64,000 nt of DNA from Gammaproteobacteria bacterium (GCA_965277715.1 OZ255836.1:768001-832000); one strand, 5' to 3'. Shown: positions 25,513-43,100, numbered from the stretch's first letter. Program-made: numbers and translations. Notes: generated by a model not told the origin, from the letters alone.

Positions 25513-25593
25513 TAATTCTTCCTCCAAGTAATTTACCCATCAATAAAGGTGTTGCACAAATATAAGCCAATGTTGAATACTATAGAAATGTTA

Positions 25594-25605
25594 TTGTATA
25601 CACAA
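25594..25605. promoter_or_regulatory. Putative GntR operator
   Basis: Near-palindrome TTGTATACACAA in the divergent dctP/GntR spacer, resembling GntR/FadR-family TTGTATACAA boxes. Confidence 0.5.
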
Positions 25606-25631
25606 GGTTGCACTATGTATTTGTTAGATAA

Positions 25632-26315
25632 ATGGATAAACTAATGACCATGAAGCCAAGAGCTGCAGATAACGTTGCGAAAGAGCTAGAAGAGCTTATC
25701 TTCAACGGCACATTTACGGATGGTGACAGGTTAGATGAAATCCGCTTGGCTGAACATTTTGGTGTTTCCAGAACGCCAATTAGAGAAGCATTTCAGAAAC
25801 TTGCATATTCCGGCCTGTTGGAACTAATTCCCAGGCAGGGCGCGTTTATACGCCAACCAGGACCCATTGATCTGATCGAGATGTTCGAGGTGATGAGTGA
25901 GATGGAAGCAATCTGCGCTCGTCTAGCCACTATCCGAATTTCAAATGAGGCGCTAAATGAGCTTTATCGTGCCAACGAGAATTGCAGATTAGCAGTGGAT
26001 GCCGATACTCCAGATCAGTATTACTTTGAGAATGAAAAGTTTCACAAGATCATTTACAAACAATCTGGAAATGGTTTTCTAGAAGCAGAAGCCATCAGGT
26101 TACACAACCGGTTAAAGCCATTTCGCCGCCATCAACTGCGGTTACGTGGACGGATGGCACAATCGTTAAGTGAGCACGAAATGGTAGTGTCCGCGATGAA
26201 GGAAGGTAATCCGGAAGCCGCCGCCAATGCGCTTCGTGATCACGTTGCTGTTCAAGGTGAAAAGTTTCAAAACCTGATGGCGATCCTGAAAGAGTCTTCC
26301 AAACAATCAGCTTGA
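25632..26315 (+). CDS. GntR/FCD-family regulator
   Basis: GDRLDE..LAEHFGVSRTPIREA; NEKFH, SLSEH, LRDHV of the FCD domain. Confidence 0.92.
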   Translation: MDKLMTMKPRAADNVAKELEELIFNGTFTDGDRLDEIRLAEHFGVSRTPIREAFQKLAYSGLLELIPRQGAFIRQPGPIDLIEMFEVMSEMEAICARLATIRISNEALNELYRANENCRLAVDADTPDQYYFENEKFHKIIYKQSGNGFLEAEAIRLHNRLKPFRRHQLRLRGRMAQSLSEHEMVVSAMKEGNPEAAANALRDHVAVQGEKFQNLMAILKESSKQSA

Positions 26316-26988: not shown

Positions 26989-27894
26989 TTAAGTCGCTGT
27001 TGTTTTCGCTCTATCTTTAAAATACTCATCAACAACCCCGGCAAATAACAGGCTGATTCGTGACATCGGTTTATTGGCCGGATAGAGCAAGACCAGATCA
27101 CTGGGAATCGATGGTTGGAAGGGTTTAACCACCAGCTTGTGGTGAATTTGCCCATGGTCGAAAACCGGCCCAATCACGGCGATACCCAGCCCGGCGGCGA
27201 CCATCCCACACACCGCGTCGGTCGTGCGTGCCTCGATGTGCATTTCACGTTGGCAGCCCGCTTCGCTAAAGGCTCTATCGATGGCATGGCGGGCGACCGA
27301 ATCGGATTTAAACGAGATAAATTTTTCACCGTGCAGGTCGTTGACATCGATGCTGTGCTGATCTGCCAATGGGTGGTGTCTGGGCAGAATACAGACTGCA
27401 TTACCACAGGCGACTGACCGTGTGCTCAGCGCTGGATTGTCGACGGGTTGGGTGGACAGCCCCACATCGCATTGCTGGGAAACCACCCAGTCAAATACCC
27501 GCTGTGAGGCCTGTACTTCGAGTGAGATGGCAATATTTGGATAGGCATCAGAAAATTTTGCAATTAACCCGGCCATCAGCGTCGAGGTCAGGCTGGGAAT
27601 GGTGATTAAACGCAGGCGCCCCTGCTGGCAATTGCGTATCGAGACCGCTGTGCTGTCGAGCTGTTCGAGGCCAATAAACGCACGCTCCACCTCGTCGAAA
27701 AAGGCATGCCCCTCGTTGGTTGGGAACAGTTGACGGTTTGCGCGGGTGAATAATTTGAAGCCGATATGTTGCTCCAAATCAGCCAGTATACGGCTGACTG
27801 CGGGCTGTGAAACAAACAGCATATTGGCGGCCTGAGTGACCGAGCCTGTCACCATAATGGCGCGAAATGCTTCAATTTGTCGCAGTGTTACCAT
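26989..27894 (-). CDS. LysR-family regulator (OccR/NocR/LysR-like subgroup)
   Basis: LRQIEAFRAIMVTGSVTQAA.ML.VSQPAVSR; divergent from the ALDH operon. Confidence 0.9.
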   Translation of the reverse strand: MVTLRQIEAFRAIMVTGSVTQAANMLFVSQPAVSRILADLEQHIGFKLFTRANRQLFPTNEGHAFFDEVERAFIGLEQLDSTAVSIRNCQQGRLRLITIPSLTSTLMAGLIAKFSDAYPNIAISLEVQASQRVFDWVVSQQCDVGLSTQPVDNPALSTRSVACGNAVCILPRHHPLADQHSIDVNDLHGEKFISFKSDSVARHAIDRAFSEAGCQREMHIEARTTDAVCGMVAAGLGIAVIGPVFDHGQIHHKLVVKPFQPSIPSDLVLLYPANKPMSRISLLFAGVVDEYFKDRAKTTAT

Positions 27895-28075
27895 AGGGTT
27901 TACCCGCTCCAGGTATTAACTATTCATAACATACAATAATCAATGCAAACAGATAAAGCATTAGTTTTTATAAATTGAGCTATACATAATCTATTTACAA
28001 GCCCTGTTTTTCGGGCGGGATAGTGGGGATTTACCCAAGTGGCAGAAAGATAGCTATTGGCAAAGAATCGTATCG

Positions 28076-29551
28076 ATGCGTGCTATAAAAAAATATACGT
28101 TGTTCATTGGTGGTGAGTGGTGTGATCCGCACACCGGTGCGTGGTTTGACGCTGAAAACCCCTATAACGGTGAACAGTGGTGTGCCATTGCGCGTGCGGG
28201 CGCGGAGGATGTCGATGCCGCTGTTGCGGCGGCGCATAGGGCCTTTACGCAGGGTGCCTGGCCACAAATGCACGCTGTCGAACGGGCGCGATTGCTGCGC
28301 CGGGCAGGCGATATATTACGCAGCCGCTGCCAGCAGATCGCCGAACTTGAGATTCGCGACATCGGCAAGCGAATCACCGAGAGTGAAGCACAGATTCACG
28401 CGACGGCCGATTGGCTGGATTACTACGCCGGTCTCGCCGACAAAATAGAGGGCCGTGTGATCCCGCTGCCGCGTGCCGATGTGTTTAATTACACACTGCG
28501 TGAACCCCTGGGGGTAGTCGCTGCCATCACGCCGTGGAATTCGCCGGTAATGATCGCGGTATGGAAAATTGCCCCCGCTTTGGCGGCGGGCAATACGGTG
28601 ATCGTCAAGCCCTCTGAGCACGCCTCAGCCTCGACGCTGGCACTGATGCAGGTGTTTGAGGCGGCGGGTTTTCCCGCCGGTGTCGTCAACACCATTACCG
28701 GCTTCGCCAATGAATGCGGGCAAGCGCTGGTGGCGCATCCCGGCGTTGCCAAAGTCACTTTTACCGGCTCGGAGACTGGCGGGCGGGCAATCAATCAATC
28801 GGCTGGTGCCTCGTTTAAACGCGTGACGATGGAGCTGGGCGGTAAATCGCCGCAAATCGTTTTCCCCGATGCGGATATAAGTAGCGCAGTCAATGGGGTT
28901 ATCTCTGGTGTGTTTCTCTCCAATGGCCAGACCTGCGTCGCCGGTTCGCGTTTGTATTTGCACCGCGATATAGCCGATACGTTTGTCCAGCAATTGACTG
29001 CCGCACTGGCCGATTTGCGCATGGGCGACCCATTTGATCCCGCCACACAGATTGGCCCTATCGCCAACCGTCAACAGTTCGATAAGGTGATGGGGTTTAT
29101 CGAAGAGGCCTGCGCTGCGGGTGCCCACTGCCTCTACGGTGGGCATGCGTGTCCTGACGTGGGGCAGGGCCTGTTTATTCAGCCGACCGTTTTTACCAAT
29201 GTCAGTGCCGATATGCGTATTATGCGTGAAGAGGTGTTTGGGCCGGTATTGGTGGTGAGTCAGTTTGACGATGAAGAAGACGTCATCGCCAGGGCCAACG
29301 ATTCGCCCTATGGCCTCGCCGCCGGGGTGTGGACGCAAAATCTGCAACGGGCACATTCGATAGTCAAGCGCATTAATAGCGGTACGGTGTACGTAAACAC
29401 CTACCGCGCCGTTGGCGTTAGCTCTCCTGTAGGTGGCTATAAAAACAGTGGGTTTGGGCGTGAAAATGGTATCGAGGCGATCGATGAATTTTTACAAACG
29501 AAAAGTGTATGGGTGGGCATTGGTGAGGGCGTGGCTCACCCTTTGAAGTAA
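28076..29551 (+). CDS. NAD(P)-dependent aldehyde dehydrogenase
   Basis: ITPWNSP, FTGS, MELGGKSP, NGQTCVAGSR (catalytic Cys), EEVFGPV. Confidence 0.95.
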   Translation: MRAIKKYTLFIGGEWCDPHTGAWFDAENPYNGEQWCAIARAGAEDVDAAVAAAHRAFTQGAWPQMHAVERARLLRRAGDILRSRCQQIAELEIRDIGKRITESEAQIHATADWLDYYAGLADKIEGRVIPLPRADVFNYTLREPLGVVAAITPWNSPVMIAVWKIAPALAAGNTVIVKPSEHASASTLALMQVFEAAGFPAGVVNTITGFANECGQALVAHPGVAKVTFTGSETGGRAINQSAGASFKRVTMELGGKSPQIVFPDADISSAVNGVISGVFLSNGQTCVAGSRLYLHRDIADTFVQQLTAALADLRMGDPFDPATQIGPIANRQQFDKVMGFIEEACAAGAHCLYGGHACPDVGQGLFIQPTVFTNVSADMRIMREEVFGPVLVVSQFDDEEDVIARANDSPYGLAAGVWTQNLQRAHSIVKRINSGTVYVNTYRAVGVSSPVGGYKNSGFGRENGIEAIDEFLQTKSVWVGIGEGVAHPLK

Positions 29552-29698
29552 GTGGTGAGTGTTTACCAATGCCTTTACACAGGATAAAGTGTGCCCAAGC
29601 TGTAGTGTGTTTGACGATATGCCGGGTAATGGCCAATGAAGGTGGTTTTTATATGATCTACACAACACAAAAAGAAAACCAGCGGTGGATGGCCGGTT

Positions 29699-30547
29699 TT
29701 GCCGCCTGAATACGCCAACACCGGTATGCTTGAACGCCTGCCGCCGGGCAGGCGGTCGAGGTTGTTCACGCGTAAATCACCCCTCATCGATGTTGTGCAA
29801 CTGTTGCTGTTGCTGGGCGGGGTCGCCTGGTTGATTTACGCCGGTGCCGCCGCTATGGAGTACAACTGGCAATGGTATCGCGTGGATAAATTTATCTACC
29901 GTATAGTCGACGGTGAGTTTATTCCCGGCCGTTTGCTACAGGGGTTGGTGATTACCTTCAAGCTGACAGCGTTTAGTATGTTGCTTACGCTGATCATTGG
30001 TTTAATCACTACTTTACTGCGGTTATCTGACTCTTTCTCTGGGCGTTTACTCGCCACGATTTACCTCGAAGCCATTCGCAATACACCGCTCCTGGTACAG
30101 TTGTTTATTTTTTACTTTGTGCTCTCACCTATTATCGGCATTGACCGGTTTTGGACGGGCGTGTTGTGCCTGGCTTTTTTTGAAGGGTCATTTGCCGCAG
30201 AAATTCTGCGCGCTGGCATTCAGTCGGTGCCGCGTGGCCAGCGCGAAGCGGCCGATGCGATTGGTTTGTCGCGGTTTAACCGATTTCGCGATGTGATTTT
30301 ACCCCAATCGATCCCGCTGATTTTGCCGCCGCTGACCGGTTTGATTATCAATTTAATCAAACACTCCGCCATTGTCAGTGTGATCGCGGTGGCCGACCTG
30401 ACAACCGAGGGGTTAAATATTATTTCAGAGACATTTATGGCCTTTGAAATCTGGTTCACCGTTGCTGCGATTTACCTCGTGGTGACAGTGTCACTTTCAT
30501 TTTTTGTCTCCTGGATCGAACGCTATTTTCGCCAGGGCTTTAAATGA
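29699..30547 (+). CDS. Polar amino acid/opine ABC transporter permease (start uncertain)
   Basis: IRNTPLLVQL, AEILRAGIQSVPRGQREAA (EAA loop), IKHSAIVS. Confidence 0.9.
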   Translation: MPPEYANTGMLERLPPGRRSRLFTRKSPLIDVVQLLLLLGGVAWLIYAGAAAMEYNWQWYRVDKFIYRIVDGEFIPGRLLQGLVITFKLTAFSMLLTLIIGLITTLLRLSDSFSGRLLATIYLEAIRNTPLLVQLFIFYFVLSPIIGIDRFWTGVLCLAFFEGSFAAEILRAGIQSVPRGQREAADAIGLSRFNRFRDVILPQSIPLILPPLTGLIINLIKHSAIVSVIAVADLTTEGLNIISETFMAFEIWFTVAAIYLVVTVSLSFFVSWIERYFRQGFK

Positions 30548-30604
30548 AGCCTGAAGCCGTCGTTTAACGACGATAATAATTCCATTGTACGGAGGAAATA
30601 TCTG

Positions 30605-31435
30605 ATGAAGTTTCAACGTTTAACAAAAACCATCGTCGCTGCTGTTGCGGCTTTGGCGATAACGGGGCTGGCGCAAGCGGGTGTCCAACAGGATTTGGCC
30701 TCTGCCAGTGTTATTGAAGAGATAAAGAAGCGCGGTAGCCTGCGCGTGGGTATGGCGACATTTGTACCGTGGGCGATGCGTGATAAACAGGGCAACCTGA
30801 TTGGCTTTGAAATCGATGTGGCGAAAAAAGTTGCCGCCGATATGGAGGTCGAGGTTGAATTTGTACCAACTGCCTGGTCGGGCATTATCCCGGCACTTAT
30901 CGCCAGGAAATTCGATGTGATTATTGGTGGTATGTCGGTTACGCCCGGCCGTAACCTGACGGTTAACTTTACCACCCCTTACGCGCACTCCGGTCAGCAA
31001 ATGGTCGCCAGCAAAAAAGCAGCCGGTGGTTTCAAGTTGGCAGATTTTAACGATTCGAGCGTTACCATTGCCTGTCGACGTGGTGCCACACCGTGCAAAA
31101 TTGCCCAGAATACGTTCCCCAAAGCCACCATCAACCGCTTTGACGATGATGCCCAGGCGATTCAGGAAGTGCGCAATGGCAATGCACACGCGGTTATTTC
31201 ATCGGCGCCCAAGCCACGTTTTTGGATGTTGAAAAACCCCGAGGTATTGTTTATGCCGACAGAAAACAATCTGTCTACGGGTGATGAAGCATTCGCTTTG
31301 CGCAAAGGTGACCCGGACGCGTTGAATTTTTTCAGCAACTGGATTTTGGTTAATACCAGCAATGGTTGGCTGAAAGAGCGTCACAACTATTGGTTTACCC
31401 AGCAGGACTGGGCCGACCAGGTGGCAGAGCAATAA
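30605..31435 (+). CDS. Polar amino acid ABC transporter solute-binding protein (family 3)
   Basis: Signal peptide, LIGFEIDVAK, WSGIIPAL...KFDVIIGGMSVTPGR. Confidence 0.92.
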   Translation: MKFQRLTKTIVAAVAALAITGLAQAGVQQDLASASVIEEIKKRGSLRVGMATFVPWAMRDKQGNLIGFEIDVAKKVAADMEVEVEFVPTAWSGIIPALIARKFDVIIGGMSVTPGRNLTVNFTTPYAHSGQQMVASKKAAGGFKLADFNDSSVTIACRRGATPCKIAQNTFPKATINRFDDDAQAIQEVRNGNAHAVISSAPKPRFWMLKNPEVLFMPTENNLSTGDEAFALRKGDPDALNFFSNWILVNTSNGWLKERHNYWFTQQDWADQVAEQ

Positions 31436-31463
31436 AGTAACGCGATTTAGCAATACCCTCGTC

Positions 31464-31508
31464 AGGGTGTCGGAAAATGCCGTAAACGCGGTGGTTTTTC
31501 GGCACCCT
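31464..31508. repeat. Palindromic element, copy 4 (after the binding-protein gene)
   Basis: AGGGTGTCGGAAAA...TTTTTCGGCACCCT forms a 14-bp stem with two G-U pairs. Confidence 0.7.
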
Positions 31509-31536
31509 TATTGATTGGGTTGTTATCGGATACACG

Positions 31537-32445
31537 ATGAATACGCAGCGACCACCACCACCGACAAAGCCAAAGCAGTTGATTAAGCCAATAGACTGGT
31601 TTGTTATTGTCTTTGTGCTGGCTGTTTCGGTGTTCGTTGTGTATCGCGTCGAGCATGTGTTGGTGTACACCTGGAACTGGCCGGTGGTGCTCGATTATGT
31701 GGTTAGCTGGGATGAGGAAACCCAATCGCTGGTGCCGAATTTACTCTTGAAAGGGATGTTTATGACCTTGCGGCTGGCATTTTGGGGCACTATCCTGGCC
31801 GCTGTTATCGGTATTTTAATGGGGCTGTGTCGCACCAGTAATAACCTGTTTTTGCGTACCCTGTCGCGTGTCTACGTCGAACTGATAAGGAATATCCCGC
31901 CGATTGTTTTTATTTTTGTGTTTTATTTTTTTATCAGCAGCCAGCTTACCCCGGTATTGGGTCTGGATGACTTTGCCCGCAATGCATCACCCACCGCTAC
32001 CTCGATTGTCGAATTTTTGTTTAGCCCTGCGGAATTATTCAGCAACTTTACCGCCGGTTTATTGTGCCTGGCGTTGTTTGAGGGCGCCTATATCACCGAG
32101 ATTGTACGGGCCGGTATCCAATCGATAGATAAAGGCCAATGGGAGGCATCCCGTGCGATTGGCTTAACGCGTTTTAATATACTGCGCGATGTTATTTTAC
32201 CGCAGGCATTAAAAAAGATTTTGCCGCCGCTGGCGGGCCAGTTTATTACGCTGGTAAAAGACTCCAGTATCGTTTCATTAATTTCAATCCAGGAACTGAC
32301 ATTTCTTACCCAGGATGTCGCCAATACCACGACACAGTTTTTTGAAGCCTGGATTTTGACCGGGTTTCTATATTTTATTGTTTGTTATCCGCTGGCCCTT
32401 TTGTTTGGGCGATTGGAGCGAAAACTTAAACGGGCGCCGGGGTAG
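31537..32445 (+). CDS. Polar amino acid ABC transporter permease
   Basis: YVELIRNIP, EIVRAGIQSIDKGQWEA, VKDSSIVS. Confidence 0.9.
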   Translation: MNTQRPPPPTKPKQLIKPIDWFVIVFVLAVSVFVVYRVEHVLVYTWNWPVVLDYVVSWDEETQSLVPNLLLKGMFMTLRLAFWGTILAAVIGILMGLCRTSNNLFLRTLSRVYVELIRNIPPIVFIFVFYFFISSQLTPVLGLDDFARNASPTATSIVEFLFSPAELFSNFTAGLLCLALFEGAYITEIVRAGIQSIDKGQWEASRAIGLTRFNILRDVILPQALKKILPPLAGQFITLVKDSSIVSLISIQELTFLTQDVANTTTQFFEAWILTGFLYFIVCYPLALLFGRLERKLKRAPG

Positions 32446-32488
32446 TTTTGAAGGGTGAAGGGTGAGTGGTGACGAATTGGGGAATTGT

Positions 32489-33286
32489 ATGAGTGATGTT
32501 GATAAGCACGGTGCGCCGAGTGGTTCGCCTAATGGTTTGTCTAAAAATGGCTCGCCTATATTGCAGCTCGAAGGTGTGGGTAAGTGGTTTGGCCAGTTTT
32601 GTGCGCTTTGGGATATTAATCTTGAGGTGACGGCAGGTGAGAAAGTGGTTGTCTGTGGGCCTTCCGGGTCGGGGAAGTCGACGATGATCCGCTGCGTTAA
32701 CCGGCTCGAAGAACACCAGGCGGGGGTCATCCGCATCGATGGTGTGGTGCTGGATGAGGATATGAAAAATATCGAAACGATTCGCCGTGAAGTCGGGATG
32801 GTTTTTCAGCATTTTAATCTGTTTCCCCATTTGACTATTTTGCAAAACCTTACCCTGGGGCCGATACGCAATTTGAATCAGTCCCGGCAGGAAGCGGAGT
32901 CGGTTGCCATGGAGTATTTAACCCTTGTCAGGATTGCCGAACAGGCACAAAAATATCCCAGCCAACTGTCCGGGGGGCAGCAACAGCGGGTGGCGATTGC
33001 GCGCGCGCTGTGTATGCGCCCCAAGATTATGTTATTTGACGAACCGACTTCGGCGCTCGACCCCGAAATGATTTCCGGGGTACTCGATGTGATGGTCGAG
33101 CTGGCGAAGGAGGGCATGACAATGGTGTGTGTCACCCATGAAATGGGGTTTGCCAAGGAAGTGGCCGATACCATGGTGTTTATGGATCACGGCGAAATTA
33201 TCGAGGTGGCACCGCCGGGCGAGTTTTTCTCGAACCCCAAAAATGATCGCACGCAATTGTTTTTGAGCCAGATTCTGTCGCATTGA
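32489..33286 (+). CDS. Polar amino acid ABC transporter ATPase
   Basis: [44 protein letters not shown]. Confidence 0.95.
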
Positions 33287-33410
33287 TAAAGCAGTGTTTT
33301 TATATCGATAACGTAAGCGTATACGAATAAGTAATAATGTCATTTGAATTTATATTTACGCTGTAGTGTGATGGCATTTCGTAGAAACTGAACAACCGAT
33401 ATTACTTTCC

Positions 33411-34664
33411 ATGCAACGTTATTCACTCTTTAGTCTGCTGCGCAATGCGGTTAACCATCACCGTGGCTGGCAGCGGGCGTGGCGTTCACCTGAGATAAAC
33501 CGTGAATACGACGTGGTGATTATCGGTGGCGGTGGGCACGGTCTTGCCAGTGCTTATTACCTGGCAAAAAACCACGGTATTAATAATATTGCGGTTATCG
33601 AAAAAGGCTGGCTGGGCGGTGGTAATACCGGGCGTAATACCGCTGTGATTCGCTCAAACTATCTGCGTGACGCCAGTATTAAATTTTTTGAAAAATCAGT
33701 TCAGCTCTACGAAACCCTGGGTCGCGAATTAAACTACAACATCATGTTCAGCCAGCGCAGTGAAGTCGATGTATTAATGACCTCGGCGAGTATGCGCGCC
33801 ATGCGCCGCCGCGCTTACAATACCGATTTACACGGTGTCGATTTTGATATTCTCTCGGCACAGGAAGTGCGCCGCCGCATCCCGATACTGGCACCGCTGG
33901 ATAACAGCCGGTTGTCGATTGTCGGCGGGACAGTGCAGGAGCGCGCCGGGATTGCCCGTCACGACGCCATCGCCTGGGGGTATGCGCGGGCGGCGGATGC
34001 ACACGGCGTGCATATTCATCAAAACACCGAAGTCATCGCCATCCGCCGGGGCGAACGCGGCGAGGTTAACGCCGTAGAGACCAATCGCGGGGTCATTAAA
34101 GCGAAAAAAGTGGCTATCGTGACCGGCGGTAATAACTACACTGTCGCGAAAATGGCGGGGCTTAAACTGCCCCTTAAAACCTACAACTTGCAGGCCTTTG
34201 TCTCCGAGCCGATTAAACCGGTGCTCGATGTCGTGGTGAACTGCCCCGATTTGGGTGTGTACCTCAGTCACTCAGACAAAGGGGAGCTGGTTATCGGCGG
34301 TGCCACCGACACACAACAGCAGTCCTATCGGCAGGGCGGCAAACTGCCGGTATTTGAGGATGCCGTTGCCGGTTTGTTGGAACTGTTTCCCACCTTTCGG
34401 CGCTTGAAACTACTGCGCCAGTGGGGCGGGGCGCTGGAATTTGCCCAAGACGCCAGCCCGATTGTCTCCACTACCGATATACCCGGCCTGTACGTCAGTG
34501 CCGGTTGGTGGGGGGGGTTTAAAGGCATTCCCGCCGGGGGTTACACGTTTGCCCACACCATCGCGCACAACGCACCCCACCCACTGAATGAACGCTACCG
34601 GCTCGACCGCTTTAAATCCCTGGACTACCTGCTCGAAGCGGGTACAACCGTGCCTAACCGGTAG
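33411..34664 (+). CDS. soxB: Heterotetrameric sarcosine oxidase-like beta subunit (divergent)
   Basis: GGGGHG FAD motif, GGNTGRNT..IRSNY, ARHDAIAWGYA, SDKGELVIG, GGFK. Confidence 0.85.
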   Translation: MQRYSLFSLLRNAVNHHRGWQRAWRSPEINREYDVVIIGGGGHGLASAYYLAKNHGINNIAVIEKGWLGGGNTGRNTAVIRSNYLRDASIKFFEKSVQLYETLGRELNYNIMFSQRSEVDVLMTSASMRAMRRRAYNTDLHGVDFDILSAQEVRRRIPILAPLDNSRLSIVGGTVQERAGIARHDAIAWGYARAADAHGVHIHQNTEVIAIRRGERGEVNAVETNRGVIKAKKVAIVTGGNNYTVAKMAGLKLPLKTYNLQAFVSEPIKPVLDVVVNCPDLGVYLSHSDKGELVIGGATDTQQQSYRQGGKLPVFEDAVAGLLELFPTFRRLKLLRQWGGALEFAQDASPIVSTTDIPGLYVSAGWWGGFKGIPAGGYTFAHTIAHNAPHPLNERYRLDRFKSLDYLLEAGTTVPNR

Positions 34665-34686
34665 GCTTGGATAGGGAGACTAAACG

Positions 34687-34935
34687 ATGTTGTTAATTCC
34701 CTGCCCCTGGTGTGGTGACCGTTCTGAAACAGAGTTTCGCTGCGGCGGTGAAGCCAAAGGCCCACGCCCCGACCCTGGCGATTACAGCGATCAACAGTGG
34801 GTCGATTATCTATGTGATGGCGGTAACCCGCGTGGTGTACTGGAGGAGATCTGGTGCCACGAGAAGGGCTGTGGCGAGTGGTTTCATTTGCACCGCAATA
34901 CATTAACCCATGCTATCGATAGCATTAAACCATGA
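34687..34935 (+). CDS. soxD: Sarcosine oxidase-like delta subunit
   Basis: IPCPWCG.R.E.EF..GGEA and W.H..GC..WF...RNT.TH zinc ligands. Confidence 0.9.
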   Translation: MLLIPCPWCGDRSETEFRCGGEAKGPRPDPGDYSDQQWVDYLCDGGNPRGVLEEIWCHEKGCGEWFHLHRNTLTHAIDSIKP

Positions 34936-37916
34936 CGACACAGGTAAACCGACTGCGCAGTGGCGGCCTGATCGACCGCAGTAAACCCATCGCGTTCACC
35001 TTTAATGGCCAACGCTTACAGGGCTTTGCCGGTGATACCCTGGCCTCGGCGCTGTTGGCAAACGGTATTGGCGTAATCTCCAGGAGTTTTAAATACCACC
35101 GGCGTCGCGGTATCCAGGGGGCAGGCGTTGAGGATGCCACCTCGATAGTACAAGTGTGCGGTGACAACGATGCGCCGAATATCCTCGCCACCCAGCAGCC
35201 CCTGTACGAGGGCCTGCAGGCGCGCAGCGTCAATTGCTGGCCCGGCGTTAATGTCGATTTTGGCGCTGTTATCCAGCTCGGCTCGGCATTGTTACCCTCT
35301 GGTTTTTACTACAAAACATTTATGTGGCCGCACTGGCACGCGTTTGAGCCATTTATTCGCAAGGCAGCGGGCTTTGGCACCGCCCCGCAAAACGTAGCCG
35401 GGAAACCCTATGAAAACCGCTTTGGCCATTGCGATGTATTGGTTGTCGGGGCTGGGCCGACAGGCCTCAGTGCCGCCCTGGCGGCAGCGCGCTCGGGGGC
35501 GCGGGTGTTGCTGGTGGATGAAAATCAACACCCTGGTGGCTGTCTGTTCGGGGGTGGCAACGAAATCGATGGTCTGCCAGCGATGAGCTGGGTGAGCCAG
35601 GCAATCGCAGAGCTGGATAGCTATCCCAACCTTGAACGCGTGAGCAATGCCACCGTGTGGGGTTACCATGAGGGCAATTTACTCACCCTGATCGAACGCT
35701 CACCACAACCGGCTGCGCTGGCGCAACGCAACCGGCGCGTATGGGCAAAGCGGGTAGTGCTGGCCAGCGGCGCAATCGAACGCCCGATTATTTTTGAAAA
35801 CAATGATCTGCCGGGCATCATGTTCAGCTCGGCAGTGCAGACGTATATCGGGCGGTATGCGGTATCGCCCGGTGAGCGTGCCGTGCTGTTTACCAATAAC
35901 GACTGCGCCTATGCGGCGATACCGGCCATGCACCGGGCCGGGATGACACTGGTGGCTGTAGTCGATGTGCGGGAAACGGTTGCAGCGCCGTTGCAGGCGC
36001 TTGTCGAAGAAGTCGGTGGGTCACTTTATACCCGGCATGCAGTCAGTAAAGCCTATGGTAGAAAACGCGTTAGCCGGGTGCGTATCACCGCCTTAACAAC
36101 ACCCTGTGAACAGATGCTCGACTGCGATTTGTTGTGTGTCTCCGGCGGTTGGAACCCGGCGGTGCACTTGCATTCACAAGCGCGTGGCAGCCTGCGGTTT
36201 GACGACACACTGGCCTGTTTCCGCCCGGATAAAATAGCCCAGTCGAATAGCTCAGCAGGCGGTGCCAACGGTGATTTCAGCCTTGAACACTGTGTGCAAA
36301 CCGGCTATGCCGCCGGAGTTGATGCGGCCCAATACAGCGGGTTTGACGGCAATGGCCAGAATTGTAATAGCCAGGATTACAATAACCGGGTACCAACCGT
36401 CACCAGCACGGGTATTGACAGCTACGCTATCCAGCCATTTTGGTGTGTGCAGCGTGACGACAAACGCTGCAAAGCCTTTGCCGATCTGGCGGGCGATGTG
36501 ACCGTCGCCGATTTACACCTGGCGGTACGCGAGGGCTACAGTGAAATCGAACACCTTAAGCGTTATACCACCGTGGGCATGGGCTTCGACCAGGGCAAAA
36601 CGGCCAACGTCAATACCATTGGCATTATTGCCGAACTTGCCGGTAAAGCGCTGCCTGAGGTCGGCACCACAACATTTCGCCCACCTTATTCACTGGTGGA
36701 GTTTGGGGCGATTGCCGGTAGTCGCAATGGCCTCTCAGTGTTGCCGTACCGGCATACCGCGATGACCACTGCCCACAAAGCCGCCGGGGCAGTGATGTTT
36801 GAAGCGGGCGCCCGTTGGCAGCGCCCCAGTTACTACCCCACCGCACCTGATGAAACCCTGCAGCAGGCTATGTACCGGGAAAGCCGCGCCGTGCGCGAGC
36901 GGGTGGCGATGTACGATGGCTCACCGCTGGGTAAATTTGAGTTAAAAGGCCCGGATGTCGTTGCGTTGCTTAACCTGGTTTACACCAATAACTGGGATAA
37001 CCTGGCGATTGGCCAGGGGCGCTACGCCCTGATGTTAAGTGAAGACGGTTTACTGTTTGACGACGGCGTTACCTTTCGTATTGACGCCACCCGCTACCTC
37101 ATGTCCGGTGCCACTGGCAATGCTCTGGCGTTACAGGCGAAGCTGGAGCGCCTGCTCAATGTTGAACGCGCTGATTTGCGGGTATTGGTCACACCGGTCA
37201 CCAGCCAATGGGCCAATGTGACGGTATGTGGCCCGCTGGCGCGTGATGTACTGGCGTCAATGGGTACAGATATTGACCTGTCACCGGCGGCATTCCCGTT
37301 TATGAGCTGTCGTGAGGGGCTGTTAGCGGGCCTGGCGGTGCGTATTTTCCGTGTCAGCTTCACCGGCGAGCTGAGTTTTGAAATCAACGTGCCGCGCCGT
37401 TATGGTGAAACCCTGTGGCACGCGGTCGCGGCGGCGGGGGCGGCGCATGGGATTTGCCCTATTGGCTCAGAGGCCAATCATCTGCTGCGGATTGAAAAGG
37501 GCTTTATATCCTTTGGTCACGAGGTGGATGGTGTCGTCGATCCCTACGACCTGGGCCTCGGTTGGTTAGTCCCGAAAACAAAAACAGACTTTATCGGCCA
37601 GCGTGCGATGGCGATACGCCGCGCCGGAAAACCACTGCGCCAGGAGCTGGTTGGCCTGTTGACGGAAAACCCCGATGAAGTGATCGCCGAAGGTGCGCCG
37701 ATTACTGTTGAGGGTGCCGCGATGGATTCCGAGGGGTTTGTCTCCGCTGCTATCTGGAGCGTGGTCAGGCAACGTTCGATTGCCTTGGGCTTGCTGAACA
37801 ATGGCCGGGCGCGCCACGGTGAAACGGTTTATGCACGGGTTAAAGGAAAAATCATCCCCGCTGTTGTTACCGCGCCGGTTTTTTACGATCCGTCCGGTGA
37901 ACGTTTGAGGATGTGA
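34932..37916 (+). CDS. soxA: Sarcosine oxidase-like alpha subunit
   Basis: GDTLASALLANG, SRSFKYHR.RG, VVGAGPTG, EHLKRYTT.GMG.DQGK, RVSFTGELSFEI (GcvT-like folate domain). Confidence 0.9.
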   Translation: MTTQVNRLRSGGLIDRSKPIAFTFNGQRLQGFAGDTLASALLANGIGVISRSFKYHRRRGIQGAGVEDATSIVQVCGDNDAPNILATQQPLYEGLQARSVNCWPGVNVDFGAVIQLGSALLPSGFYYKTFMWPHWHAFEPFIRKAAGFGTAPQNVAGKPYENRFGHCDVLVVGAGPTGLSAALAAARSGARVLLVDENQHPGGCLFGGGNEIDGLPAMSWVSQAIAELDSYPNLERVSNATVWGYHEGNLLTLIERSPQPAALAQRNRRVWAKRVVLASGAIERPIIFENNDLPGIMFSSAVQTYIGRYAVSPGERAVLFTNNDCAYAAIPAMHRAGMTLVAVVDVRETVAAPLQALVEEVGGSLYTRHAVSKAYGRKRVSRVRITALTTPCEQMLDCDLLCVSGGWNPAVHLHSQARGSLRFDDTLACFRPDKIAQSNSSAGGANGDFSLEHCVQTGYAAGVDAAQYSGFDGNGQNCNSQDYNNRVPTVTSTGIDSYAIQPFWCVQRDDKRCKAFADLAGDVTVADLHLAVREGYSEIEHLKRYTTVGMGFDQGKTANVNTIGIIAELAGKALPEVGTTTFRPPYSLVEFGAIAGSRNGLSVLPYRHTAMTTAHKAAGAVMFEAGARWQRPSYYPTAPDETLQQAMYRESRAVRERVAMYDGSPLGKFELKGPDVVALLNLVYTNNWDNLAIGQGRYALMLSEDGLLFDDGVTFRIDATRYLMSGATGNALALQAKLERLLNVERADLRVLVTPVTSQWANVTVCGPLARDVLASMGTDIDLSPAAFPFMSCREGLLAGLAVRIFRVSFTGELSFEINVPRRYGETLWHAVAAAGAAHGICPIGSEANHLLRIEKGFISFGHEVDGVVDPYDLGLGWLVPKTKTDFIGQRAMAIRRAGKPLRQELVGLLTENPDEVIAEGAPITVEGAAMDSEGFVSAAIWSVVRQRSIALGLLNNGRARHGETVYARVKGKIIPAVVTAPVFYDPSGERLRM

Positions 37917-38425
37917 TGACTTATCGGGTAACTATAGAACCCCTTGTGCTGAGTGCCCTGTTCGATGTGCGCGGTGACCGGGAAAGCCTGGCAGCGCTCT
38001 TTAGTGCGGTCGATCTACCATTGCCGGAAACCGTAAATAGCGTATTGCAAACAGCCTCTACCCGCGTATTGCGGGTCGGCCCCAGGCGTTGCCTGATTCA
38101 GGCTGACATAGAAAACGAAGCGGCTTTGCAAGTGACACTCAAAGGGGCGAGTGAACCACTGTTCGCCAATGCCACCTGTGTATCGGATATGTACCACGCC
38201 CTGCGGATACGGGGTGAAGATGCCGCCGATGTGCTGGCACAGATTACCCCACTGGATTTTTGCCGTTTAGGCCCAGGCTCGGCAACCGCGTGTGAATTGT
38301 TTACCACGGCGGGTTTTCTGTTCAAAAACGCCGAACAGGATTTTACCCTCTACTTTGATAGCAGTTATTTCGACTACGCCTTACAGCGGGTTAAAAAATG
38401 TGCATTGGTCTATATCGATGAATGA
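37913..38425 (+). CDS. soxG: Sarcosine oxidase-like gamma subunit
   Basis: Size, position, LFDVRG, VGP, VSD...LRIRGE.A.DVLA, SYFDY. Confidence 0.75.
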   Translation: MMTYRVTIEPLVLSALFDVRGDRESLAALFSAVDLPLPETVNSVLQTASTRVLRVGPRRCLIQADIENEAALQVTLKGASEPLFANATCVSDMYHALRIRGEDAADVLAQITPLDFCRLGPGSATACELFTTAGFLFKNAEQDFTLYFDSSYFDYALQRVKKCALVYIDE

Positions 38426-39458
38426 AGAGAAATCCTTATTCCTAAAAAACACCTGGTATGTTGTTGCGCATAGCAACGCGATTAACCGCACACTCAAAGC
38501 GTTGAAAATCCTGGGTGAAAACATCGTATTTTACCGGGATACGCAAGGCAAACCAGTAGCCCTGGAAGATGCCTGCCCGCACCGCAAGCTGCCGTTATCG
38601 ATGGGGGCTTTGCAGGGGGATACGGTGCAGTGCGGTTACCACGGGCTGACTTTTGATTGCAGCGGTAGCTGTGTGAATGCACCCACGCAAAACAAAATTC
38701 CGGTCAATGCCAGAGTGCGCAGCTACCCGGTTGTCGACAAATATAAACTGCTGTGGATATGGATGGGGGATACGGCACAGGTCGATGAAAATAAAATCCT
38801 GCACGTACCGGATTACGATGACCCCACCTGGGGGTTGACCGATGGCGGCATGTTGCAATGTCAGTGTCACTACTTATATTTGATGGACAACCTGCTCGAC
38901 CCATCACACGTCGCCTGGGTTCACGCCACCTCATTTGCCTCAGAAGGCACCGAGAATTCCCCACTGGATATTGTCGGGGATGAGGCAGGTGTGACTGTCT
39001 CACGCTGGATAAAGGACATCCTACCACCGCCTTATTACGCCGATAGGCTGACGTTCAAAGGCAAAACAGACCGCTTACAATACTACCAGGCCGTCCTGCC
39101 CTCGACGGCAATCAACATGAGCACCTACACCCCCAGCGGCACAGGTGGGGCTGAGCGGGTACTCCCGGCTAACGCATACTGTATGCGCTCCTACCACTTT
39201 CTGACGCCAATAGATGAAAACAACACCCGCTACCACTGGTTTCAGCATTTCAACACCGATACAGACAACCCTGCGGTTAAGGAAAAACTTAACGAAGGTG
39301 CCCGCGCCGCTTTTGAAGAGGATCGTGTCGTGCTCGAAGCGGTGCACCGTGGTATGCACGGTAAACAAACACCTAATATCGACTTGCGACTGGATGCGGG
39401 GGCACGCATTTTCCGTAAAAAACTAAAGGGGTTATTAGCAAGCGAAGCGGTTGATTAA
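38418..39458 (+). CDS. Rieske non-heme iron oxygenase alpha subunit, VanA-like demethylase family
   Basis: CPHR...CGYHG Rieske ligands, DNLLDPSHVAWVH iron site, AFEEDR; ATG at 38418 overlaps the soxG end. Confidence 0.9.
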   Translation: MNEEKSLFLKNTWYVVAHSNAINRTLKALKILGENIVFYRDTQGKPVALEDACPHRKLPLSMGALQGDTVQCGYHGLTFDCSGSCVNAPTQNKIPVNARVRSYPVVDKYKLLWIWMGDTAQVDENKILHVPDYDDPTWGLTDGGMLQCQCHYLYLMDNLLDPSHVAWVHATSFASEGTENSPLDIVGDEAGVTVSRWIKDILPPPYYADRLTFKGKTDRLQYYQAVLPSTAINMSTYTPSGTGGAERVLPANAYCMRSYHFLTPIDENNTRYHWFQHFNTDTDNPAVKEKLNEGARAAFEEDRVVLEAVHRGMHGKQTPNIDLRLDAGARIFRKKLKGLLASEAVD

Positions 39459-39832
39459 TCAAACGGTGGCACCCGTGCAATAAAATGTCCTTTGATACCC
39501 TGTGGCCAGGTTTTGTAGGGCACCTGCCCGGTTTCTGACTGTAGGTATTTTTCAAAATAATCGACTATCGCCCCGGCACTTTCGTCGTTTGGGGCGAACC
39601 CCCCCGTGACATAACAGATCTTGCCAGCCGCACGAAAGTGTAAATTACAGTGATGGTCACACCCCATCAGGCAGCGCGTGGTGCGAATCTCGAAGGCGTC
39701 GGCATATGGGCTGTCTGCTGCCAGTGAGGCGATTTTATCGTGCAGTACCTGGCCACCGCTTTGGCCGTGTTCATTCAGCGCTTCCGCCTCGCTGAAGCGG
39801 CACGTCTCGCATACATAAATACAGGGTTTCAC
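39455..39832 (-). CDS. DUF1636-like Cys-rich metal-binding protein
   Basis: IYVCETC, CLMGCDHHC, A.GK..YV.G.F, G.VPYK.WP..IKGHFIARVPP. Confidence 0.75.
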   Translation of the reverse strand: MKPCIYVCETCRFSEAEALNEHGQSGGQVLHDKIASLAADSPYADAFEIRTTRCLMGCDHHCNLHFRAAGKICYVTGGFAPNDESAGAIVDYFEKYLQSETGQVPYKTWPQGIKGHFIARVPPFD

Positions 39833-40104: not shown

Positions 40105-43100
40105 ATGATGTCTAAAAAATCCTATTTCCTTCTCGTCTGCCTTTTTCTGACAAGCTTCAGTATCAGTGCGTTTGCAACCATACCCACCGTTCACAATACC
40201 AATGAAACCTATTATACCAATAACACGGGTCAAAATACGGTCGATGGATTTACCATTAGCCTTACCTCACCTGGCAATATCGCAAGGTATTCCGGGGAGA
40301 GCAGTGGATTCACCAGGGCTTTGGCAATAGAAAGTAATCCAGCAGTAACGACCCACACCTGGACATTTACGGCAGATAACTCTGACCTTGCGACGTTTAA
40401 CCTGGATCAGATTCGAGCTTTCGATTTTAGCGCCTCGGGTGCCGCGATGACTGTTGTGATTAATGCCAGTAATGGCATGTCACAGACCTTTACTACCAGT
40501 ACCTCTACTCAAAATAACCAAGCCATGCTAAATACCACGGCGGGTTTGTTTGATAGCATCAGCAGCTTCTCAGTTTCGCTGTCACTAAGTGGACGTTTGA
40601 ATAGTAATGCTTTATTGGCTGGGTTTACCATTTCCAATATTGTAGAGCCTATATTCGTTAATACGCCGCCAATCATAATCAATGCGCCCGCATCGGTAAC
40701 TGTGGTCGAAGATGTAGCGACTGATATCGGCTTATCCACCATTGTTTTTTTCGATAATGAAGCCAATCCCCTGACCACCACCTTCACTGCCGCCTCAGGC
40801 ACCTTAGCCACCGCATTGGGTAATGGCACCTTCGCAGGTGTGACTGTCAGCGGTTCGGGAACGGCTGCCCTGGTACTTGCCGGTAGCTCAGGCAACCTCA
40901 ATACCTTTTTAGACATCACGACCAATGTGCGCTATACAACGGCGCTAAACAATACAACCGCCACCAGCATTACTATCACTGGCAATGATGGCGATGGCGG
41001 TGATCTGACCACCAACCCCAGCATCACAGTTAATATCACCGCAGTGAATGATGCGCCGACGATAGCGGGTGTGCCTGCATCGGTGACCGTGGCGGAAGAT
41101 GTAGCGACGGCTATCGATTTATCTGCCAGCACCTTTGCCGATGCCGAGGACGATAGCCTGACTGTGACCTTGACCGCTGCCTCGGGCACCTTAGCCACCG
41201 TATCGGGTAATGGCGCCTCAGGCGGCGTAACTGTCAGCGGTTCGGGAACGGCCGCCCTGGTACTTGCCGGTAACCCGGCCAACCTCAATACCTTTTTAGA
41301 CACCGCGACCAATGTGCGCTATACAACGGCGCTAAACAATACAACCGCCACCAGCATTACTATCACTGGCAATGATGGCGATGGCGGTGATCTGACTACC
41401 AACCCCAGCATCACAGTTAATATCACCGCAGTGAATGATGCGCCGACGATAGCGGGTGTGCCTGCATCGGTGACCGTGGCGGAAGATGTAGCGACTGATG
41501 TCGATTTATCTGCCAGCACCTTTGCCGATGTCGAGGACGATAGCCTGACTGTGACCTTGACCGCTGCCTCGGGCACCTTAGCCACCGCATCGGGTAATGG
41601 CGTCTCAGGCGGCGTGACTGTCAGCGGTTCGGGAACGGCCGCCCTGGTACTTGCTGGTAACCCAGCCAACCTCAATACCTTTTTAGACATCACGACCAAT
41701 GTGCGCTATACAACGGCGCTAAACAATACAACCGCCACCAGCATTACTATCACTGGCAATGATGGCGATGGCGGTGATCTGACCACCAACCCCAGCATCA
41801 CAGTTAATATCACCGCAGTGAATGATGCGCCGACGATAGCGGGTGTGCCTGCATCGGTGACCGTGGCGGAAGATGTAGCGACGGCTATCGATTTATCTGC
41901 TAGCACCTTTGCCGATGTCGAGGACGATAGCCTGACTGTGACCTTGACCGCTGCCTCGGGCACCTTAGCCACCGTATCGGGTAATGGCGCCTCAGGCGGC
42001 GTAACTGTCAGCGGTTCGGGAACGGCCGCCCTGGTACTTGCCGGTAACCCGGCCAACCTCAATACCTTTTTAGACACCGCGACCAATGTGCGCTATACAA
42101 CGGCGCTAAACAATACAACCGCCACCAGCATTACTATCACTGGCAATGATGGCGATGGCGGTGATCTGACCACCAACCCCAGCATCACAGTTAATATCAC
42201 CGCAGTGAATGATGCGCCGACGATAGCGGGTGTGCCTGCATCGGTGACCGTGGCGGAAGATGTAGCGACTGATGTCGATTTATCTGCCAGCACCTTTGCC
42301 GATGTCGAGGACGATAGCCTGACTGTGACCTTGACCGCTGCCTCGGGCACCTTAGCCACCGCATCGGGTAATGGCAGCTCAGGCGGCGTAACTGTCAGCG
42401 GTTCGGGAACGGCTGCCCTGGTACTTGCCGGTAACCCGGCCAACCTCAATACCTTTTTAGACACCGCGACCAATGTGCGCTATACAACGGCGCTAAACAA
42501 TACAACCGCCACCAGCATTACTGTCACTGGCAATGATGGCAATGGCGGTGATCTGACCACCAGCCCCAGCATCACAGTTAATATCACCGCAGTGAATGAT
42601 GCGCCGACTATTGCCGGTACGCCTGCAACGGTAACTGTGGTTGAAAATGTAGCGACGGCTATCAATTTATCTTCCAGCACCTTTGCCGATGCCGAGGACG
42701 ACACCCTGACTGTGACCTTGACCGCTGCCTCGGGCACCTTAGCCATCGCATCGGGTAATGGCAGCTCAGGCGGTGTGACTGTCAGCGGTTCGGGAACGGC
42801 TGCCTTGCAGCTTGTCGGTAACCCGGCCAACCTCAATACCTTTTTAGACACCGCGACCAATGTGCGCTATACAACGGCGCTAAACAATACAACCGCCACC
42901 AGCATTACAGTCACGGGCAATGATGGCAATGGTGGCACTCTGACCACCAATCCCAGCATCGTCGTTAATATCGCCGTAGCGGAGAGCGATGTGCCGGTCT
43001 TACCCACAGATACTACGCTCACAGTGACAGCGACAGCCAATAGTTTGGCGATCAATTGGAACGCAGTGACCGATGTCAATTCAGTGATTTATGCGGTGAC

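Follow-up and report, generated by a model that had tools for sequence, protein, structure and literature searches.

A LysR-linked importer, SoxBDAG paralogue and Rieske oxygenase gene set in a gammaproteobacterium: a candidate operon for uptake and N-demethylation of a methylated amino acid

A 64,000-nucleotide stretch of genomic DNA from a Gammaproteobacteria bacterium (GCA_965277715.1, OZ255836.1:768001-832000), referred to here as the window, carries at positions 26989 to 39458 a LysR-family regulator gene facing genes for an aldehyde dehydrogenase (ALDH), an amino acid importer of the ATP-binding cassette (ABC) type, four sarcosine-oxidase-like subunits (SoxBDAG) and a Rieske monooxygenase. 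The operon stands, in our estimate, an even chance of being a LysR-controlled system that takes up an aromatic or heteroaromatic alpha-amino acid in N-methylated (betaine-type) form and removes its N-methyl groups oxidatively, one step at a time. Hercynine (histidine betaine), together with its di- and monomethyl forms, is the lead candidate substrate, although a tentative one, and tryptophan betaine (hypaphorine) or N-methyltryptophan is placed second. N-demethylation is favoured because an amino acid importer, three kinds of N-demethylase, a folate-coupled Sox enzyme, a Rieske oxygenase of a demethylase class and links to histidine catabolism and HisC-like genes are found together in the window or in related loci.

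Genes were called from open reading frames (ORFs) and from Pfam and NCBIfam profile searches of the 64-kb window. Both sources agree with the first-pass annotation of this DNA, which had described ten co-oriented genes under a divergent LysR gene with overlaps from soxD through soxA and soxG to the Rieske gene. The LysR gene lies on the minus strand and is separated by an intergenic region of 181 bp from the plus-strand genes, which run in the order ALDH, permease, solute-binding protein (SBP), permease, ATPase, soxB-, soxD-, soxA- and soxG-like genes, and Rieske/VanA_C oxygenase. The features of the locus, in window positions, are the following.

26989-27894, minus strand: LysR-family regulator (Pfam HTH_1 and LysR_substrate)
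27895-28075, no strand: divergent control region of 181 bp between the LysR and ALDH genes
28076-29551, plus strand: NAD(P)-dependent ALDH, similar to betaine-aldehyde dehydrogenase (BADH) (Pfam Aldedh, 597 bits)
29699-30547, plus strand: ABC permease 1, polar amino acid type (BPD_transp_1, HEQRo_perm_3TM)
30605-31435, plus strand: family-3 periplasmic SBP with signal peptide (SBP_bac_3)
31537-32445, plus strand: ABC permease 2 (BPD_transp_1)
32462-33286, plus strand: ABC ATPase (ABC_tran; GlnQ-like, 306 bits)
33411-34664, plus strand: SoxB-like flavoprotein, beta subunit (TIGR01373, 542.4 bits, cutoff 529.45)
34687-34935, plus strand: SoxD-like delta subunit (Pfam SoxD, 98.8 bits)
34932-37916, plus strand: SoxA-like alpha subunit with folate-binding domain (Fer2_4, SO_alpha_A3, GCV_T, GCV_T_C)
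37913-38425, plus strand: divergent SoxG-like gamma subunit (TIGR01375, 48.6 bits; no Pfam match)
38418-39458, plus strand: Rieske [2Fe-2S] non-haem-iron monooxygenase of the VanA/DdmC class (Rieske and VanA_C)

The soxD/soxA and soxA/soxG pairs overlap by 4 nt each and soxG and the Rieske gene by 8 nt. The longest Rieske ORF begins with a GTG at 38292 and has its Rieske domain from residue 54, and the ATG at 38418, which gives a protein of 346 amino acids, is most likely the true start. The presence of kdsA, eno, ispD, nagZ, dnaX, mltF and dapD in the window gives it the appearance of a gammaproteobacterial chromosome. A DUF1636 gene (39455-39832, minus strand) and the Rieske gene converge, with 4 nt in common at the end of the latter; the DUF1636 gene was rejected as a member of the operon, being a neighbour of Rieske or SBP genes in none of the 160 loci described next.

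Relatives of the Rieske protein numbered 2931 at E <= 1e-3 among 4774 candidates and were present in at least 590 species representatives in a genome scan, in which 590 of the 591 pattern matches listed were confirmed. Two sets of loci were compared. The Rieske-anchored set comprised the best 80 of these at least 590 genome loci (54-61% identical), mostly from Rhodobacteraceae, Rhizobiales, Burkholderiales and gammaproteobacterial metagenome-assembled genomes (MAGs), and the SBP-anchored set comprised 80 metagenome loci (49-79% identical), only 22 of which are 15 kb or longer. All ORFs of the 160 loci were clustered into neighbour families, and representatives were searched against Pfam and NCBIfam. 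Around the Rieske anchor an SBP orthologue was found in 27 of 80 loci, SoxA in 17 and both in 9, while a weak LysR match (37-45% identity) occurred in 3 and the ALDH type of the window in none. Around the SBP anchor a Rieske orthologue (64-67% identical) was present in 17 of 80 loci and was nearly always divergent from the ABC genes; LysR genes occurred in 26 (the orthologue cluster LysRw in 20), ALDH in 11 and SoxA in 5. One locus (L130) holds ABC, Rieske, SoxBDAG and ALDH genes together, another (L100) has LysR, ABC and SoxBDAG, and two (L083 and L111) repeat the order of divergent LysR, ALDH, permease and SBP. Species that can be cultured and have the cluster include Ruegeria atlantica, Marivita cryptomonadis and Neptunicoccus cionae. 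None of the 160 loci repeats the ten genes in exactly the order that they have in the window. As the parts co-occur elsewhere without that order, the set is conserved as a shuffled module and not as a fixed operon; the arrangement is non-random in the sense that the same parts recur together, which is a statement about gene arrangement and not about a statistical motif. Failure of the set to stay together in other genomes had been named beforehand as an outcome that would refute the proposed pathway, and such a failure was not what the comparison returned.

The four Sox genes occupy 33411-38425 in the order beta-delta-alpha-gamma that marks the heterotetrameric sarcosine oxidase family. SoxB exceeds its NCBIfam cutoff, and the other subunits score below theirs (soxA TIGR01372, 1146.9 against 1164; soxD, 100.4 against 116.5; soxG, 48.6 against 143.95). 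SoxB matches the beta subunit of the solved Corynebacterium TSOX with 388 bits, SoxA matches 2gag_A with 606 bits over residues 158-991, and SoxG is 26-36% identical to the SoxG proteins of linked loci. The folate-binding half of SoxA is complete (Pfam GCV_T, 205 bits; GCV_T_C, 53 bits). Because SoxA keeps the entire GCV_T folate domain, as in the N-demethylating sarcosine oxidases, its sequence points to N-demethylation and not to C-N cleavage of the opine type; the same domains speak against the earlier suggestion that the flavoenzyme cleaves a C-N bond and hands the released aldehyde to the ALDH.

Five genomes with a related cluster contain two to four SoxB paralogues each, 14 matches in total. 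The copy adjacent to Rieske or ABC genes is the best match to the SoxB of the window (57%, ~540 bits), and the other paralogues are 47-50% identical. These other copies lie beside a superoxide dismutase gene (stand-alone), beside mgsA/mgsC-like genes and an AraC regulator, beside a gene resembling a haem-dependent N-demethylase, or beside another ALDH. The copy next to superoxide dismutase is presumably the ordinary sarcosine oxidase, and that next to the mgsA/mgsC-like genes is of the N-methylglutamate type. In a quick maximum-likelihood tree of 25 sequences, with support from the Shimodaira-Hasegawa-like approximate likelihood ratio test (SH-aLRT), the window SoxB falls in an 11-row clade (SH-aLRT 99) apart from all the other SoxB types, the stand-alone and mgs-linked paralogues of the five genomes included, and it is thus not an orthologue of the stand-alone sarcosine enzyme. 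Nine of the ten other clade members come from loci with a Rieske orthologue, an SBP orthologue or both; the clade includes L075, a Rieske-anchored locus whose Rieske ORF was missed by the clustering. By sequence, the Sox set forms a paralogue clade of its own, linked to the transporter and the Rieske enzyme. Canonical sarcosine oxidase and N-methylglutamate dehydrogenase were accordingly rejected as identities on the tree and the neighbourhoods. No glyA, purU, folD, OpuAC/BCCT transporter or AraC regulator gene was found among the ORFs of at least 200 amino acids in the 64-kb window. The first-pass annotation had set the locus apart from canonical sarcosine oxidase loci on the lack of glyA, purU, betaine transporters and AraC regulators, and that distinction is supported here.

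The importer belongs to the family-3 polar amino acid systems, with an SBP_bac_3 protein, two HEQRo-type permeases and a GlnQ-like ATPase, and the fold of the SBP was confirmed with an AlphaFold2 (AF2) model (predicted local distance difference test score, pLDDT, 89.2). The closest structure to the SBP is 9e2b (Z 31.1, 56% identity, 311 bits), a solute-binding protein from Desulfonauticus sp. with L-tryptophan bound, followed by a lysine-bound Wolinella protein (3k4u) and the arginine-binding ancestor AncCDT-1. As the nearest SBP holds L-tryptophan and the next ones lysine or arginine, the ligand would be a molecule of the alpha-amino acid type whose side chain is aromatic or cationic. Three conserved motifs of the SBP clade differ from those of 9e2b (AHSGQQ/DYSGMS, CRRGATPC/ARLGTTAA and SSAPKPRFW/ASAPLPAFK, clade first), and on account of these differences the ligand is probably related to tryptophan but more polar or anionic; we take the motifs to lie at the pocket from the structures of HisJ and LAO. 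The two cysteines of CRRGATPC are conserved in the window's SBP clade and replaced in the Roseobacter versions and in 9e2b, and possibly pair in a disulfide peculiar to the window's clade, close to the binding cleft. Relatives of the SBP are present in marine, soil and compost metagenome contigs. Orthology with SAR11_1068 (Pu1068) was considered and rejected, the match to 5kkw reaching 81.5 bits at 27% identity; the parts consulted of two accounts (PMC11485210; bioRxiv 10.1101/157495) describe that protein as an orphan binding protein with its ligand still unknown. Similarity to NocT/OccJ is remote (~56-60 bits over 78 residues only).

The Rieske protein has the two domains of the VanA/DdmC class (Pfam Rieske, 84 bits; VanA_C, 141 bits), with the CxH...CxxH motif, a 2-His-1-carboxylate iron site and the VanA_C fold. 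The cluster and iron ligands C53, H55, C72, H75, H164, H169 and D302 are invariant in alignment A1. An AF2 model (pLDDT 84.7) superimposes on the dicamba O-demethylase DdmC with Z 37.8 (root-mean-square deviation 2.1, 334 residues, 30% identity), on the guaiacol O-demethylase (7qwt) with Z 35.8 (26% identity), and on SxtT/GxtA and the caffeine N-demethylases NdmA/B with Z ~29 each, the latter at ~20% identity. The nearest structures are thus all demethylases or hydroxylases, with the dicamba and guaiacol enzymes closest, in keeping with the demethylase role given to this protein beforehand. The ESM Atlas returned only generic 'ring-hydroxylating dioxygenase' clusters, and no Stc2 entry was obtained at E <= 1e-5. 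The protein does not group with GbcA, BmoA, CntA or Stc2, its catalytic domain being VanA_C and its gene having no adjacent reductase gene. In a quick tree with SH-aLRT support only, it forms the deepest branch of an 18-row clade of metagenome loci (SH-aLRT 100), most of which contain an SBP and many of which contain aminotransferase and thiamine pyrophosphate (TPP) enzyme genes.

The ALDH falls below both curated BADH cutoffs (PRK13252, 563.9 against 593; TIGR01804, 545.1 against 668.6), and its nearest PDB entries are BADHs (~444 bits). Orthologues with 65-67% identity occupy the same position in L083 and L111. It is the least conserved member of the operon, and in relatives it accompanies an aminotransferase and a 2-oxoacid decarboxylase; on the strength of that association it more likely oxidises an aldehyde from an Ehrlich-type branch, or formaldehyde, than an aldehyde freed by the flavoenzyme. 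A protein with two glutathione-dependent formaldehyde-activating (GFA) domains is encoded at 60762-61619 (minus strand), 21 kb from the operon, and a connection with formaldehyde from the Rieske step is possible.

In related loci the transporter lineage adjoins three interchangeable demethylase systems, namely the Rieske oxygenase, SoxBDAG and corrinoid methyltransferases resembling MttB/MtmB. In 8 of 80 SBP-anchored loci, and in one truncated locus, the gene immediately after the ABC genes is of the MttB family (PF06253, 684 bits). One locus (L159) has an ABC set whose SBP is 49-53% identical to that of the window, together with a corrinoid system of B12-binding proteins, MttB-family (323 bits) and MtmB-like (327 bits) proteins and a pterin-binding methyltransferase; hutU (59%) and hutH (45%) are divergent from these corrinoid demethylase and ABC genes, so that the locus is a candidate for a corrinoid-dependent route from methylated histidine to histidine. 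Its layout (L159:1-16500) is anaerobe-style, with hutH-hutU divergent from genes for Crp, a B12-binding protein, an MttB-family protein, a corrinoid protein, an MtmB-like protein, the ABC system with its family-3 SBP, an NMT1-like protein, an M20 peptidase and a pterin-binding methyltransferase. For glycine betaine in Roseobacters, GbcAB and MtgBCD are alternatives and 'related uncharacterized' MtgB paralogues occur as well, according to the portion consulted of a preprint (bioRxiv 10.64898/2025.12.19.695462).

Relatives also contain an Ehrlich-type module of a HisC-like aminotransferase, a split TPP-dependent decarboxylase, an ALDH, a deacylase resembling DoeB/AstE and a LigXa-like Rieske gene; of this module the window contains the ALDH only, a tblastn search having turned up no other member. 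The aminotransferase scores 239 bits on the hisC model, under its cutoff, and its nearest PDB entries are histidinol-phosphate and phenylalanine aminotransferases, while the decarboxylase resembles sulfopyruvate decarboxylase alpha/beta, again under the cutoffs. Among the SBP-anchored loci, TPP genes were found in 21 of 80, the aminotransferase in 18, the deacylase in 14 and the ALDH in 11. Roseobacter versions of the loci add oxygenase genes (a fatty acid desaturase, FA_desaturase, with a Rieske ferredoxin; TauD; PhyH; P450) and MatE, AhpD-like and glutathione S-transferase (GST) genes; the FA_desaturase and Rieske-ferredoxin pair, present in 20 of 80 loci, is presumably MocD/MocE-like (O-demethylases). 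A soluble protein of ~370 amino acids without a Pfam or NCBIfam match is encoded in 29 of 80 genome loci (for example L022:7606-8724), almost always divergent from the LysR gene that precedes the Rieske orthologue, and is an uncharacterised family tied to the Rieske/transporter system.

In 12 of 80 genomes, which belong to several alpha- and gammaproteobacterial lineages, the Rieske orthologue has histidine-catabolism (hut) genes no more than 10 kb away. The order Rieske-hutC-hutF-hutI-hutU-hutH-hutG occurs in four gammaproteobacterial MAGs (L010, L016, L042 and L052); further linked loci have hutH-Rieske-hutG-ALDH (L060), a Sox-Rieske-hut supercluster (L019) or three hut genes (L025), while hutF alone stands beside the Rieske gene in four loci and a hutC-like gene alone in L065. 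Since a hut operon fills well under 1% of a genome, the linkage would lie far above random placement, a judgement from that estimate and not from a computed control. In the same four MAGs a 206-amino-acid protein with an HD-like motif and no family match (~8530-9380) precedes AhpD-like, Rieske and hutC genes in that order, and is reminiscent of small HD-domain oxygenases. A fused hydantoinase A/B (oxoprolinase-like, 1204 amino acids) adjoins the ABC-MttB unit in L140 (14818-18432) and its relatives, and in 8 of 80 genome loci the Rieske orthologue has creatininase-family genes next to it; the two findings are a hint of cyclic-amide intermediates of an imidazolone or hydantoin-like kind.

Gene and domain content, the paralogue clade of the Sox set and the conserved neighbourhoods are observed here, whereas the substrate, the succession of steps, what the ALDH does and which donor supplies the Rieske enzyme with electrons are inferred. 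In the proposed route, the family-3 ABC system would import the methylated amino acid. The Rieske monooxygenase would then hydroxylate one N-methyl group of the quaternary amine with release of formaldehyde, the task of GbcA or Stc2 carried out by an enzyme of the VanA/DdmC class. The SoxBDAG paralogue would take the remaining methyl groups and pass the one-carbon units to tetrahydrofolate through the GCV_T domain of SoxA, giving methylenetetrahydrofolate (CH2-THF). The end product would be the free amino acid, which would enter either the hut pathway or a transaminase-decarboxylase-ALDH branch. The ALDH may oxidise formaldehyde from the Rieske step or the aryl- or imidazolylacetaldehyde of the transaminase-decarboxylase branch, which is encoded beside the transporter in relatives and absent from the window. 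It is further conceivable, although we would sooner bet against it, that the loci represent an undescribed and widespread route from hercynine (perhaps an ergothioneine-related compound or another aromatic betaine) to the amino acid, with one transporter lineage, interchangeable Rieske-plus-SoxBDAG or corrinoid modules, and outflow into hut or the transaminase-decarboxylase-ALDH branch. The proposal made before this analysis, uptake of an N-substituted and methylated amino acid, survives as regards an uptake and catabolism operon and N-methylation; its opine flavour is not supported, given the complete GCV_T and GCV_T_C domains of SoxA.

Several observations weigh against N-demethylation of an aromatic betaine, and against hercynine in particular. 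The closest characterised relatives of the Rieske protein are methoxy-aromatic O-demethylases at 26-30% identity, NdmA/B being more distant, and the match to the quaternary-amine enzyme CntA covers the Rieske domain alone (residues 3-88, E 5.7e-8). Among the window ORFs of at least 200 amino acids no reductase partner turned up, and no VanB-type reductase in the operon or among the recurrent neighbour clusters of the related loci. The SBP motifs carry extra Arg, Lys, Gln and His residues relative to the tryptophan-bound protein, so that a cationic betaine is not obviously favoured. Across the 80 Rieske-anchored genome loci neither the ALDH nor the LysR gene is conserved. In the 64-kb window a tblastn search turned up neither hut genes nor a gene for an aminotransferase, a decarboxylase or an MttB protein. 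The clade to which the window belongs in the quick Rieske tree has 18 members, none of them hut-linked; the 12 hut-linked loci all fall in a 71-row sister clade that is only 55-60% identical, and hut genes occur in only 1 of 80 SBP-anchored loci. The link to histidine catabolism is for this window an indirect one.

Two alternatives are unlikely to a similar degree. The first supposes an O-methylated (methoxy) aromatic amino acid, perhaps also N-methylated, with the Rieske enzyme as O-demethylase, SoxBDAG for N-demethylation and the ALDH acting on an Ehrlich arylacetaldehyde. It would account for the dicamba (Z 37.8) and guaiacol (Z 35.8) enzymes as nearest Rieske structures, the second, LigXa-like Rieske gene in the same loci, the FA_desaturase and Rieske-ferredoxin pair (20 of 80 loci) if its presumed likeness to MocD/MocE is accepted, the L-tryptophan ligand of the SBP relative, the resemblance of the aminotransferase to aromatic aminotransferases, and the high scores of the ALDH on the phenylacetaldehyde dehydrogenase and HpaE models. 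MttB/MtmB-type methyltransferases, however, are as far as is known specific for N-methyl groups and stand beside the same transporter; the hut linkage would be left unexplained, and no ring-cleavage dioxygenase was seen in the related loci.

The second supposes a basic amino acid methylated on its side chain (N-epsilon-trimethyllysine, methylarginines, ring N-methylhistidines or ovothiols), and is just as improbable. Here the aminotransferase, decarboxylase and ALDH would act on the alpha end, yielding for example a betaine aldehyde as substrate of the BADH-like ALDH, and the Rieske, Sox or MttB enzymes would take the side-chain methyl groups, a chemistry for which we see an equally slim prospect. 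The SBP relatives 3k4u and AncCDT-1 bind lysine and arginine, the ALDH has betaine-aldehyde and aminoaldehyde dehydrogenases as its nearest relatives, the aminotransferase-decarboxylase-ALDH module is conserved beside the transporter, NdmA/B show the same fold demethylating ring nitrogens, and the AhpD-like and GST genes of relatives could serve thiol-histidines. Yet the nearest SBP binds tryptophan and no basic amino acid, the hut linkage suits histidine derivatives only, and the loci showed no sign of a dedicated catabolism of lysine or arginine.

An ordinary pathway for glycine betaine, dimethylglycine and sarcosine (or choline) with an unusual transporter is more doubtful still. The Rieske enzyme would then be glycine betaine monooxygenase, Sox the dimethylglycine/sarcosine oxidase and the ALDH a BADH, in line with a SoxB above and a SoxA nearly at the NCBIfam cutoffs, with an ALDH just under the BADH cutoff, and with the Rieske-versus-MttB alternative known in Roseobacters, as far as the consulted portion of the preprint goes (bioRxiv 10.64898/2025.12.19.695462). 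Against this, the Sox set lies in a clade apart from the stand-alone paralogues of the same genomes, the SBP is of the amino-acid-type family 3 with a relative that binds tryptophan, glycine betaine breakdown has no use for the conserved neighbours (aminotransferase, decarboxylase and hut genes), and the Rieske protein is not GbcA/CntA-like and has no glyA, purU or folD neighbours.

Opine-type catabolism, in which an imported N-carboxyalkyl amino acid would undergo C-N cleavage by the flavoenzyme and the ALDH would oxidise the freed aldehyde, is very improbable: LysR with a family-3 ABC system does resemble the occ/noc layout, and the SBP motifs have additional basic residues that could serve to bind a second carboxylate, but SoxA has a folate domain that OoxA/NoxA presumably do not have, the NocT/OccJ similarity is weak and partial, and the methyltransferase neighbours point to methyl groups. 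The OccR/NocR-type reading of the first-pass annotation is likewise not supported by an SBP that is only remotely NocT/OccJ-like and whose nearest solved relative binds L-tryptophan.

N-demethylation of an aromatic or heteroaromatic amino acid betaine, the preferred reading, can be set against the known systems. The SoxBDAG enzymes of Corynebacterium sp. U-96 and Stenotrophomonas maltophilia (1x31/3ad7, 2gag) have the same four subunits, gene order and alpha folate domain, whereas the window set is a separate clade, is linked to an ABC importer and a Rieske gene, has a very divergent gamma subunit and is without glyA, purU and folD. Glycine betaine and stachydrine are demethylated by GbcAB/BmoAB or Stc2, then DgcAB/StcD, then SoxBDAG. 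The logic is the same, a Rieske enzyme taking the first methyl group and flavoenzymes the rest with formaldehyde or CH2-THF as products, but the Rieske protein of the window is of the VanA_C type without an adjacent reductase, the transporter is of family 3 and the Sox clade is different. In relatives, an MttB-family gene follows the transporter in place of Rieske and Sox genes, as a counterpart of the corrinoid demethylases of the MttB superfamily (MtgBCD), whereas the window has no MttB gene and the MttB paralogues of the relatives are uncharacterised. DdmC, the guaiacol O-demethylase (7qwt) and VanA share fold, domain pair and conserved ligands with the window Rieske protein, but act on methoxy-aromatic acids with a dedicated reductase or ferredoxin, whereas the context here is amino acid uptake and, as proposed, N-demethylation, with no partner nearby. 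The octopine and nopaline systems (OccR/NocR, OccQMPJ/NocT, OoxAB/NoxAB) likewise combine a regulator of the LysR family with a family-3 importer and a flavoenzyme related to SoxB, but the window SBP is distantly related and its oxidase has four subunits and binds folate instead of having two subunits.

No description of such a gene cluster, and no demethylative route from hercynine or methylhistidines by Rieske, sarcosine oxidase or MttB enzymes, was found in open-access papers and bioRxiv full texts. The only hercynine-specific catabolic enzyme found there is a histidine-betaine trimethylammonia-lyase of the marine bacterium Shewanella woodyi, reported in the consulted part of a preprint (bioRxiv 10.1101/2025.08.13.670108), which makes hercynine a real substrate. 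If hercynine is the substrate here, this lyase and ergothionase are the only other known entries into its catabolism; they release trimethylamine and urocanate without demethylation and belong to enzyme families unrelated to those of the window. All parts of the cluster come from known families. In its working the combination resembles the pathways for glycine betaine and stachydrine, but it lies outside them, having a different Rieske subfamily, another family of transporter and a separate Sox clade. The cluster is a solid, testable lead and not a categorically new system.

The best NCBIfam match of the LysR protein is PRK11013 (252 bits, under the cutoff of 288), and an AT-rich block of ~45 nt is common to the LysR-ALDH intergenic regions of the window and L083. 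A promoter and terminator scan gave nothing above chance (8 promoter-like elements against a shuffle mean of 12.5; 19 terminator-like against 18.9), and a search for T-N11-A returned 3579 occurrences where ~3661 were expected and is hence uninformative. An Rfam scan found no element in the control region; its only hit was a bacterial small signal recognition particle RNA (56404-56500, plus strand, 66 bits), far from the operon. Just upstream of the LysR gene lies a GntR/FCD regulator gene (25632-26315), beside a malonyl-CoA synthase-like ligase (803 bits) and genes of a tripartite ATP-independent periplasmic transporter (DctM, 22575-23891; DctP, 24517-25527); this region (20852-26315) is likely a malonate or dicarboxylate utilisation unit. 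At 40105-45600 (plus strand) a protein of 1831 amino acids with Cadherin_4, fn3 and Invasin_D3 domains is encoded, probably a large repeat adhesin. Its gene contains 5.7 tandem copies of a 387-bp unit (40780-42976, 94% matches), which also create a ladder of 126-amino-acid antisense ORFs.

Carbon, nitrogen and methyl groups pass between algae, animals and bacteria to a large extent as methylated amines and betaines. The genes by which glycine betaine, carnitine and proline betaine are degraded have been identified, and for the betaines of aromatic amino acids such genes are not known. The cluster family described here is a common one. Once its substrate is identified, the SoxBDAG paralogue, a large clade of 'vanillate demethylase-like' Rieske proteins and the MttB paralogues would each gain a function, and a marker gene set would become available for a flux that is currently invisible in metagenomes.

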